From Escherichia coli (GTDB lineage: Bacteria > Pseudomonadota > Gammaproteobacteria > Enterobacterales > Enterobacteriaceae): a stretch of 64,000 bases of DNA. This document shows, one piece after another, positions 6,001 to 9,000 of the stretch; the stretch's first letter is position 1; every line of letters begins with the position of its first letter. The stretch is taken from assembly GCF_030013595.1 (NCBI RefSeq), contig NZ_CP122768.1, one strand, 5' to 3'. The position numbers are program-made.

Positions 6001-9000
6001 ACCCAGCGCGACGCTGTTGTCAGCGGCAGCAATGGAACCAGAACCAATCGCAACACTATCTTTACCCTGCGCGTTGGCATCTACGCCATCGGTGTTGGTC
6101 TTGAAGTATTTGGTGCTACCGGTGGTTACGATATCGCCAATGCCGTTTTCGATATTGGTAACGCGAGTATCCAGATTCGTCACCTGATTGTTCAGGTTAG
6201 TAATGCTCTGGGTATTCTGGGAAACCTGCGCGTCCGTTACTTTCAACTGACCCACGTTAACCGCATCGGTATCCGCTGAACCAGCCGCGACGTTGGTGAT
6301 CTGACGTTGACCGTCTTCACTGCCGACAGAGAACTCACCCACAGAGTTCTGTGGTGCGTCCATGTTGTAGGCGGTGTAGCCAGTTTGAGCACCACGAGTC
6401 GTCTGTGAGCCACTACCCATAGCAATGCTGTTTGCATGGTTTGCACGCGCGTTGCTACCAATAGCAATGCCATTAAGTGCATTCGCGTCCACGTAGGCAC
6501 CATAACCGATACCAATACCCACATTACCATTAACGATAGTTTTCGCGCCCATTGCTAGCGAGTCTTCACCTACTGCCAGTGAATCTTCTTCCGTTGAGTT
6601 GGAGTGGAAGTATTTGGTCGGCGTGGTAGCGACTGCACCAATGGCATTTTGCAACTGGCGAACCGTAACGGCGTCATGGGCTTCGGAACCATCGGCTACG
6701 TTGATGATTTGACGATATTTACCGTCATCACCAATAGACAACGCACCAAGTAGTTCGCCATCCGTGGTGTCATAACCAATCACAACACCTTCTTCCGACA
6801 CGCTGGTGTCACGAGAACCTTTAACTATTACACGGCTGGAAACAGAACTGCTACCCAGAGCGATACCCGTATCAACGTTGCTGTAGCTGCCCTGACCAAT
6901 GGCTACGCTGCTTTCGCCTGAGGCGACAGCGTTATAACCCACAGCCGTAGCGCCAATACCTGAAGCGCTGGCATCGTTGAACGCTAAGCCGTTGTCGTTG
7001 GTACGTACATAGTTAATACCCGCACCGTTATCTTCGATGTAGGTTTCGCTGGTGTTACCGGCAAGCTGATTGATGATTTCGCTGTTCTGCTGGATCAGCA
7101 TATTGGTGTTAAACAGCTGAGAACCGTTGATGGCGTCAGTGCTGCCTTCGCCAATGTTACCATCAGCAACGTTTGTGATGATGCTGGCCTTGCCATCATG
7201 GCTGGCGTTGTAGGCACCTGCGCCGTCATTGGCCGTTGCATCCCACAGCAGAGCGTTATCGTCGAGCGCATCCAGGGCGTCACCGACGTTGTTGTACTCG
7301 GCATTTGCAATGGTGTAACTCGGCGCAGTGATAGTGCCATCAGCGTTGACTTCTGCGTCACCACCCAGCGCATCAGCGATGTACTTGTTGGTGGTATACA
7401 GTTGTGAACCGTTAATGGCATCGCTGCTGGTGGAGGAAATTGCACCGTTAGCGACGTTAGTGATTACACTGGCTGTTTTATCTTTTCCGTGAGCGGCGCT
7501 AAATGCACCATTACCATCATTGGCTGTGGCATCCCACAGCAGGGCGTCATCCAGCGTGGTATCGATCGCTTCCAGCGCGTCACCGACGTTGCTGTAACTG
7601 CCGCCAGCGATGGCATAAGTCGGTGCGGTGATTGTGCCGTCAGCATTGACTTCTGCGTCACCACCCAGAGTATTGGCAATGTACTTGCTGGTGTCATAGA
7701 GCTGTGAGCCGTTAATAGCGTCGCTGCTGGTAGAGGAAATTGCACCGTCTGCAACATTAGTAATGATGCTGGCCGTGTTATCTTTTCCGCGACCGGCGCT
7801 AAACGCACCGTCACCGCCCTTGGCGGTCGCATCCCAGAGTAGGGCGTCACCCAGTGATGTGCTAAATGACGTGTTAATGGCAGCCAGAGCATCACCGACG
7901 TTATTGTAGTCAGTACCACCAATAGTGTAGGTTGGCCCGGTTAATACACCCGCATCACTGATATCAGCACCACCGCCAAGGTATGACGTAAATGAATCAG
8001 CTAAGCCATAAAGTTGTGAGCCATTAATGGCGTCAGTGCTATCAGAGGATACCGTGCCTGCCAGTAAGTTGGTGATTTTGCTATCAGTACCGTTGGTACC
8101 GTGTTTGGCACTGAATGCACCCGCCGTAGCGTTCCACAGCAGAGAGTCATCACCGAGACTGTCAACAGCGTCAGTCAGGTTGGTGATGTTGGTGGTATTC
8201 GTGGCGATATTGGTGGTGTTGGCTGCCACGGCATCGTTAGTGGTTTTGAGCTGAGAGCCGTTTACCGCGTCAGTGCTACCAGCCGTCAGGTCACCGTCTT
8301 TGACGTTGGTGATTTTGCTGGTGGCATCGGTACCGTGCGCGGCGCTGAACGCGGTGCCATTCCACAGCAGGGCATCGTCTTTAAGGTCGCCAACGGAATC
8401 CGTCAGGTTGGTGATGTTGGTGGTGTTGGTTGCCACATTATCGTTAGTGGTTTTGAGCTGAGAGCCGTTAACCGCGTCGGTGCTGCCAGCCGTCAGGTCA
8501 CCGTCTTTGACGTTGGTGATTTTGCTGGTGGCATCGGTGCCGTGCGCGGCGCTGAACGCGGTGCCATTCCACAGCAGGGCATCGTCTTTAAGGTCGCCAA
8601 CGGAATCCGTCAGGGTATTGATACTGTTAGTGTTGGTGGTGATATTGGCAGTATTGGTCGCTACGTTATCGTTGGTGGTTTTCAGCTGAGAACCGTTAAC
8701 CGCATCCTTACTGGTATCAGAAATAGCGCCGTCTTTAACGTTGGTGATGGTACTGGTAGTATCTGTACCATGTGCCGCACTATATGCCTTTTTAAGGGAG
8801 TCCCATTGTAACGTATTATTGTCCAGGCCCGTTAAGGCGTCGCCAACAGTGCCGAAAATACCACTTTTCAGCCTGTAATTTGGGGAAGTAACGACGCCTT
8901 GCGCATTGACGGTAGCCCCCCCACCAAGATTGTCCGCTACTGACTTACTGATAGCATAAAGCTGTGATCCATTGATGGCATCAGTACTGGTAGTGCTGAT

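Follow-up and report, generated by a model that had tools for sequence, protein, structure and literature searches.

Modular and repetitive stalks are a defining trait of the trimeric autotransporters (PMC2373917). In the daTAA domain dictionary the DALL element is described as an alpha-to-beta connector, and a neck always comes after it. The Escherichia coli proteins EhaG and UpaG are positional orthologues with extensive sequence variation of their passenger domains; SadA, their counterpart in Salmonella, is reported to be strongly conserved across S. enterica and to have a function that is masked by lipopolysaccharide (LPS) and fimbriae (PMC7247748). The 1461-aa SadA was modelled at a length of ~108 nm (PMC7247746). 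The domain arrays of BadA from Bartonella henselae are reshuffled, as resolved by long-read sequencing and ascribed to recombination or slipped-strand mispairing (PMC8859334). In-frame deletion series of AtaA from Acinetobacter sp. Tol 5 revealed that function depends on a minimum fibre length (PMC11385948).

We analysed a gene of this group found in a stretch of 64,000 nucleotides from the E. coli contig NZ_CP122768.1 (RefSeq assembly GCF_030013595.1). This stretch is designated "the window" and all nucleotide positions refer to it. The repeats of the adhesin stalk were described at the DNA and protein levels, and their number was compared between the window and other E. coli genomes. No paper counting DALL-neck modules across E. 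coli was found in the open-access literature.

The adhesin gene and its locus

The gene order in the window is lldP (3457-5139), the adhesin gene, a lipoprotein gene and yibL (11459-11821) (Table 1). This is the position of the EhaG/UpaG/SadA group, which has lldP on one side and the sadB-like gene, yibL and the mtl operon on the other; the order is the same in the annotated ehaG and upaG records. Counterparts of the lipoprotein are named "SadB/YajI family lipoprotein" or "DUF3251" in RefSeq; profile scans of the 227-aa protein itself gave no Pfam or NCBIfam match.

Pfam analysis of the adhesin identified the extended signal peptide region (ESPR; E = 3.6e-15), 14 stretches of YadA_head (1e-47), 12 stretches of YadA_stalk (1.3e-112) and a C-terminal YadA_anchor (5.1e-19), the anchor type of type Vc secretion. 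No NCBIfam model scored above its cut-off with the adhesin. A YadA-type anchor contributes four strands to a 12-strand barrel. The anchor region also matches the Hia anchor structures 3EMO and 2GR7 as well as YadA anchor structures, and strong matches were obtained with crystal fragments of Salmonella SadA (E = 8.6e-134 for 2YO0 and 6.9e-91 for 2YO3). The neck motif DA[VI]NxxQL occurs 12 times. The polypeptide is therefore composed of a signal peptide, a passenger with heads, necks and a coiled-coil stalk, and the anchor. The combination of ESPR, YadA heads, the 12 YadA_stalk stretches and the YadA anchor is the full signature of a trimeric autotransporter adhesin, and homology to trimeric crystal structures suggests that the protein is exposed as a homotrimer on the cell surface.

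The RefSeq label for this group of alleles is only "YadA-like family protein", with no reference to the ehaG or upaG names. Identity of the adhesin to EhaG and UpaG is 76-80% overall, ~50% in the head region and 88-100% in the C-terminal third (500 aa). It appears to represent a third class of alleles at the EhaG/UpaG/SadA locus.

Table 1. Features of the adhesin gene region (positions in the window; aa, residues of the adhesin)
Feature	Position	Strand	Evidence
Trimeric autotransporter adhesin gene, 1587 aa; allele at the EhaG/UpaG/SadA locus	5410-10173	minus	intact ORF, Pfam, SadA fragment matches, gene order
Extended signal peptide, aa 1-48	10030-10173	minus	Pfam PF13018 (ESPR)
C-terminal membrane anchor, aa 1527-1587	5413-5595	minus	Pfam PF03895 (YadA_anchor); Hia and YadA anchor structures
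Upstream lipoprotein gene, 227 aa; positional counterpart of sadB	10217-10900	minus	ORF; lipobox-like N-terminus LLAGC
207-bp tandem duplication, best DNA register, 196/207 identical	8202-8408 and 8409-8615	minus	TRF, repeat finder, direct count
Short module 1, aa 453-530, 78 aa: DALL-type connector (TLQW), neck, coiled coil	8584-8817	minus	module parsing
Short module 2, aa 531-599, 69 aa (207 bp): DALL, neck, coiled coil	8377-8583	minus	parsing, TRF, repeat finder
Short module 3, aa 600-675, 76 aa: like module 2 plus one heptad (NIATNTT) in the coiled coil	8149-8376	minus	parsing
Long module 4, aa 676-775, 100 aa: DALL, neck, coiled coil, FGG insert, coiled coil	7849-8148	minus	parsing
Long module 5, aa 776-875, 100 aa	7549-7848	minus	TRF, repeat finder, parsing
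Long module 6, aa 876-972, 97 aa	7258-7548	minus	TRF, repeat finder, parsing
Final DALL-neck module, aa 973 to ~1040, before the next head region; low boundary approximate	7054-7257	minus	parsing; copy of repeat family D1 at 7104-7197

Repeats and modules of the stalk

TRF detected a 207-bp period at 8202-8614 (2.0 copies, 95% matches), and a separate repeat finder reported the two halves of the duplication (Table 1) as one pair, also at 95%. The longest exact run common to the two copies has 75 bp (8333-8407 and 8540-8614). A second period, of 300 bp, was found by TRF at 7262-7854 (2.0 copies, 80% matches), while the repeat finder identified weaker members of the family, spaced by 207-300 bp, from ~7100 to 8790. 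Chance was evaluated with 30 codon shuffles, in which the highest-scoring 207-nt window of the gene, whatever its offset, had on average 92 and at most 96 matches, so that the 207-bp repeat, with 196 matches, is far beyond chance. The first-pass annotation, made from the sequence of the window, had proposed a 207-bp unit recurring at 8241 and 8448, a duplicated 69-aa block in the protein, and more diverged units of ~100 aa at ~7100-7950. All three agree with the present data. The two positions have the correct 207-bp spacing and lie inside the units of 8202-8615, the peptide quoted for the block is found at aa 531 and again at aa 600, and the region with the 300-bp period is covered by the modules starting at aa 676, 776, 876 and 973 (window positions 8148 to ~7054). 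Plus-strand ORFs present in the array (e.g., 8101-8811) probably reflect nothing more than the antisense reading of a repetitive coding sequence.

The conserved (D)ALLW motif served to delimit the modules in the protein, their length being counted from start to start. Seven modules result (Table 1). Each opens with DALLW, DSLLW, NALLW or TLQW, followed by ITN(V/L)...DA(V/I)NGSQL and by polar heptads. In the short modules (69-78 aa) the content is DALLW..., then ITNV...DAVNGSQL, then the polar heptads; the long ones (~100 aa) have the same content plus a GG...G(P/S)TY...NVGDAL segment. The additional heptad of module 3 accounts exactly for its difference in length to module 2. Module 1 is ~65-72% identical in nucleotides to modules 2 and 3 and is the third member of repeat family D3 (75%). 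Modules 5 and 6 are 79% identical in nucleotides and 78% in amino acids.

A phmmer search aligned the module 2 segment to SadA 2YO2 over "DALLWD...SKITNL...STDAVNGSQ", and the FGG and DALL segments of module 4 to SadA 2YO2 and AtaA 3WPA; AtaA 3WPO also aligns to the repeats. Based on these alignments and on the dictionary entry for the DALL-neck succession, the repeats are very probably structural building blocks of the fibre stalk, each built from a DALL element, a neck and coiled coil, to which FGG is added in the long ones.

Variation in module number among E. coli genomes

The gene has a match in 4155 of the 5426 complete E. coli genomes surveyed, but 3493 of these matches are only 80-90% identical to the gene of the window. 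Among the best-matching records the gene spans 4320-5880 bp, and annotated intact CDSs are found over the same range. A search with the 207-bp unit alone located it in 1200 of the 5426 genomes, at one to eight places in each (median 3); four is the commonest number of places in a spread sample of genomes. The place count was checked module by module in one record, scored 6, which does contain six modules.

The comparison of allele lengths across strains, advised in the first-pass annotation, uncovered a loss of 207 bp in 17 genomes, a loss of 444 bp that creates a hybrid module, and a gain of 474 bp in a near-clonal relative of the window (Table 2). The 207-bp loss is also present in a pseudogene (L005) that is not counted among the 17 genomes. 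The reading frame is kept in all ten intact alleles of the group (the window, L001-L004, L006, L013, L014, L016 and L018). The number of short modules of the m2/m3 type per allele ranges from zero in L004, whose hybrid joins a short-module head to a long-module tail, to at least six, and BLAST places reach eight. Single heptads (21 bp) were likewise gained or lost between alleles. In L008 there is a run of five nearly identical DALKW units. Module positions are orthologous across alleles: module 4 of L013 and module 5 of L014 are identical, and module 5 of L013 is 99.6% identical to module 6 of L014. Signs of ongoing homogenisation among modules are few.

Table 2. Alleles compared with that of the window
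Allele	Difference to the window allele	Short modules, in order (aa)
Window	reference	78, 69, 76
L001, from a set of 17 genomes that share a 4557-bp span	loss of exactly 207 bp, 98.6% identity in the rest	78, 76
L004, NZ_CP158426	444-bp loss	78, then hybrid module
L003, NZ_CP069090	+21 bp in array, small indels elsewhere	78, 76, 78
L006, NZ_CP123059	+6 bp in array, small indels elsewhere	78, 76, 78
L013, NZ_CM149870	+474 bp	78, 69, 78, 78, 78
L014, NZ_CP027437	three extra short modules, one fewer long	78, 69, 76, 78, 78, 78
L016, NZ_CP023386	not aligned to window	76, 78, 78, 78, 78, 78

The array is not hypervariable. The L001 allele is shared by its 17 genomes and the exact protein of the window by at least 24 assemblies, and changes in the array thus fall between lineages, not within outbreaks. 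The gene has decayed in some lineages: L005 is frameshifted by a 1-nt insertion that lies outside the array, and L012 has an IS91 truncation; selection on the adhesin is therefore not universal. A phase-variable switch based on simple-sequence repeats was considered and rejected: the units have 207-300 bp, every indel observed in the array is a multiple of 3, and the ORF is kept.

Origin of the length variants

Near-identical units are prone to be skipped by an assembler, in which case the genome would carry more short modules than the two near-identical ones of the window, and the first-pass annotation had cautioned that the true copy number might differ for this reason. Several observations go in that direction. 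Modules of the m2/m3 type are more numerous in relatives (four in the nearest, NZ_CM149870, and five in NZ_CP027437), the commonest count in the spread sample is four, and the longer alleles hold exact repeats of 137-152 bp, which is near short-read length. Furthermore, an assembler skip from module 3 to the last module would give exactly such a head-plus-tail hybrid as module 3 of the window, although a real deletion gives the same product. Nevertheless, we consider an artefact quite unlikely. The longest exact repeat within the window allele is the 75-bp run described above. The identical 1587-aa protein occurs in 27 blocks of the public collection and on at least 24 contigs whose sizes range widely (20-50 kb, 8; 50-200 kb, 9; 0.2-1 Mb, 8; >1 Mb, 2), so that draft and chromosome-scale assemblies agree on the product. 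Short-read assemblies usually break at multi-copy insertion sequences, whereas the window crosses a copy of IS1397 (~41700-43060), an element found at six places in the nearest relative, without interruption; this points to a long-read or finished assembly. Finally, complete genomes with one or two m2/m3-type modules do exist (the 17 genomes with L001 and, in addition, L003 and L006). The caution about collapse is not sustained by these data, and the two-copy state of the window can be taken as real, that is, as a genuine allele that seems stable within its lineage. A simple collapse of the NZ_CM149870 or NZ_CP027437 array was also rejected, as module 3 of the window has several SNPs relative to every module of these two alleles, the nearest one being at 97.8%.

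The differences between genuine alleles could be of ancient date. The architecture would then be static, with old, fixed domain duplications and no continuing gain or loss, and strains would differ because they carry ancient allele classes. The long modules, which are only ~80% identical, the deep divergence of the EhaG and UpaG allele classes from the window protein, and the stability of alleles within clones are compatible with such a history. It is made very unlikely by alleles that are 98-99% identical outside the array but differ by whole modules, by runs of nearly identical units such as the one of L008, and by the nearest relative of the window. In the 19.8 kb right of the gene there is 100.0% identity with NZ_CM149870 and NZ_CM149862, both isolated from pigs, and over ~60 kb the window differs from NZ_CM149870 by ~23 SNPs and one IS insertion (~0.04% divergence, ~99.96% identity), yet the array of the latter is different by 474 bp. 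A single event cannot explain the rearrangements between these two arrays, which would be separated by at least two. The comparison shows that the array can change on the same timescale as a point divergence of a few hundred parts per million. The same pair of genomes bears on the horizontal replacement of the whole allele, or of large pieces of it, by DNA from other strains. Recombination between strains clearly shapes this locus, which is highly mosaic across E. coli, as seen in the large majority of more distant matches and in the low identity of the N-terminal head to those of EhaG and UpaG. However, there are no SNPs between the window and NZ_CM149870 in 7001-8000 and in 8501-12000, on both flanks of the array. 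The difference is confined to the array, which argues for a rearrangement inside the gene and not for an imported tract. L001 and L004 are likewise clean deletions of units in genes otherwise 98.6% identical. It is thus extremely unlikely that replacement is the main source of the variation. Both intragenic rearrangement and allele replacement probably operate, but replacement leaves the indels in unit register unexplained.

An intragenic origin, in which stalk modules vary in number by misaligned pairing that keeps the reading frame, is very likely. The junction of L004 lies inside a 15-nt identity, AGCAAAATCACCAAC (coding for SKITN of the neck), common to modules 2 and 4, which are otherwise diverged outside this segment, and its product is the hybrid module. 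The endpoints of the L001 deletion cannot be placed because they are inside a long shared sequence. Module 3 of the window has, in its first half, the diagnostic bases of L014 module 3 and, in its second half, the ones diagnostic for the short module that comes last in L013 and L014. This hybrid could have been generated by the loss, in register, of three 234-bp modules from an L014-like array. L013 would be best explained by another deletion, in which such an array lost one module. Neighbouring units have 90-97% DNA identity, and conserved codons of the neck are common even to diverged ones, which permits misaligned pairing of units through unequal homologous exchange or replication slippage. 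Whole modules would be deleted or duplicated in frame by this process, and the trimeric fibre would stay intact while changing its length. The recombination-driven length variation suggested in the first-pass annotation is thus supported for its outcome, a stalk that varies by whole in-frame modules. We infer the mechanism itself from its products alone, which are as expected from RecA-dependent exchange and from slippage alike.

Functional implications and comparison with known adhesins

Considering the masking of SadA by LPS and fimbriae and the minimum fibre length required by AtaA, tuning of reach is the most plausible effect of the variation: copy number would set how far the adhesive heads extend beyond the surface polysaccharide and perhaps which epitopes are exposed. 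By simple scaling from the modelled SadA fibre, a 69-aa short module would lengthen the stalk by roughly 5 nm, and the range of allele lengths, 1439-1909 aa (~470 aa), would represent a difference of roughly 35 nm between fibres. A more speculative proposal, which we regard as unlikely, is that the short-module array is a length-tuning locus, its copy number (0 to ~8) being selected to match the thickness of the O-antigen or capsule of each lineage. If this is true, module number co-varies with the type of surface polysaccharide and changes faster than the background of point mutation. For annotation and typing of the locus, length variants by whole modules (4320-5880 bp) are to be expected and are not errors. 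Vaccine or antibody work directed at UpaG or EhaG must allow for a variable stalk.

Among the described systems, AtaA resembles the window protein in its FGG, DALL-like and neck modules. It differs by its 3630 aa and by a length series that is engineered rather than natural, and it is no orthologue of the window gene. BadA is likewise a trimeric autotransporter; its array of necks and stalks is highly repetitive, and its domain number varies by isolate. It is, however, much longer, has far more repeats, and is flanked by pseudogene copies that are possible donors; no adhesin pseudogene copies are annotated beside the E. coli gene in the loci examined. SadA shares with the window protein the sadB-like gene found upstream, and fragments of it have been solved (2YO0, 2YO2, 2YO3, 2YNZ, 2YNY and 3ZMF). 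It belongs to another species and is shorter, and its conservation in S. enterica contrasts with the length polymorphism of the E. coli locus. EhaG of E. coli O157:H7 and UpaG of uropathogenic E. coli are encoded like the window gene between lldP and the sadB-like gene and yibL, with the same architecture of ESPR, heads, stalk of DALL, neck and FGG elements, and YadA anchor. EhaG differs in having three longer DALL/DALKW units where the window protein has its short modules of 78, 69 and 76 aa. The variation described here is thus a known kind of phenomenon at a known locus, ordinary for trimeric autotransporters such as BadA and the SadA/UpaG/EhaG group; the window provides a clean and well-documented case of a fibre protein that gains and loses modules in frame, with nothing new in kind.

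Adhesin Locus in Other Strains

The locus of the trimeric autotransporter adhesin is in decay in some E. coli lineages. In a strain named ST648 (record L005, 1501-6052) the gene carries a 1-nt frameshift that lies outside the repeat array, and in an avian O2:K1:H7 strain (record L012, 5636-7700) only the final 699 bp remain, beside an IS91 transposase. Module expansions also arise independently in other allele backgrounds, since the allele of NZ_AP027764 (record L008, 1501-7038), which belongs to a separate class, has an array of five nearly identical units of ~85 amino acids that are of a different short-module type (DALKWD...).

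The lipoprotein gene at the sadB position upstream from the adhesin gene is disrupted by a frameshift or a stop codon in L005 and in the corresponding records of NZ_CP123059 (L006) and NZ_CP027437 (L014). Its window copy gave no match in Pfam and NCBIfam scans; RefSeq labels its orthologues either “DUF3251 domain-containing” or “SadB/YajI family lipoprotein”. In many E. coli genomes, the stretch that matches window positions 10174-30000 harbours a ~10-kb insertion with the coding sequence of an Rhs element core protein. Comparison of this stretch across genomes showed that the insertion is absent from the window and its closest relatives.

Features of the Window and Differences from Its Near-Clonal Relative

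The coordinates of the features are listed in the table. RNA features are Rfam matches, two of which (sok and the cspA thermoregulator) are above the gathering score.

Features of the window outside the adhesin gene
Feature	Window position	Strand	Remarks
sadB-position lipoprotein gene	10217-10900	-	
“Type I restriction endonuclease” gene (annotated name)	25236-26315	-	359 aa
ORFs of the interrupted gene	25779-26315; 25236-25760		
hicA/hicB toxin-antitoxin pair	26788-27400	+	names from the annotation of the near-identical relative
IS1397 (IS3-like) insertion	41700-43060		between ysaA and avtA
ES036 sRNA	43110-43152		borderline Rfam match; adjoins IS1397 end
Chromosomal sok antitoxin RNA	61902-62053	+	Rfam, 124 bits
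cspA thermoregulator	62336-62763	-	Rfam, 501 bits

The restriction endonuclease gene is intact in the near-clonal pig isolate NZ_CM149870, and its window copy is split into two ORFs by an in-frame stop at codon 179. This stop coincides with the SNP at position 25781, one of the few that separate the two sequences. The hicA/hicB pair adjoins this restriction endonuclease-like gene and is placed between aldB and a gene of glycoside hydrolase family 127.

The IS1397 site is common to the window and NZ_CM149870, a genome in which this element is found at 6 places. That IS1397 is read through in the window hints at a long-read or finished assembly. A second element, ISVsa5 (IS4-like, ~1.3 kb), splits wecH in NZ_CM149870. 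It is absent from the equivalent site of the window (about 57452-57460), where wecH is therefore presumably intact.
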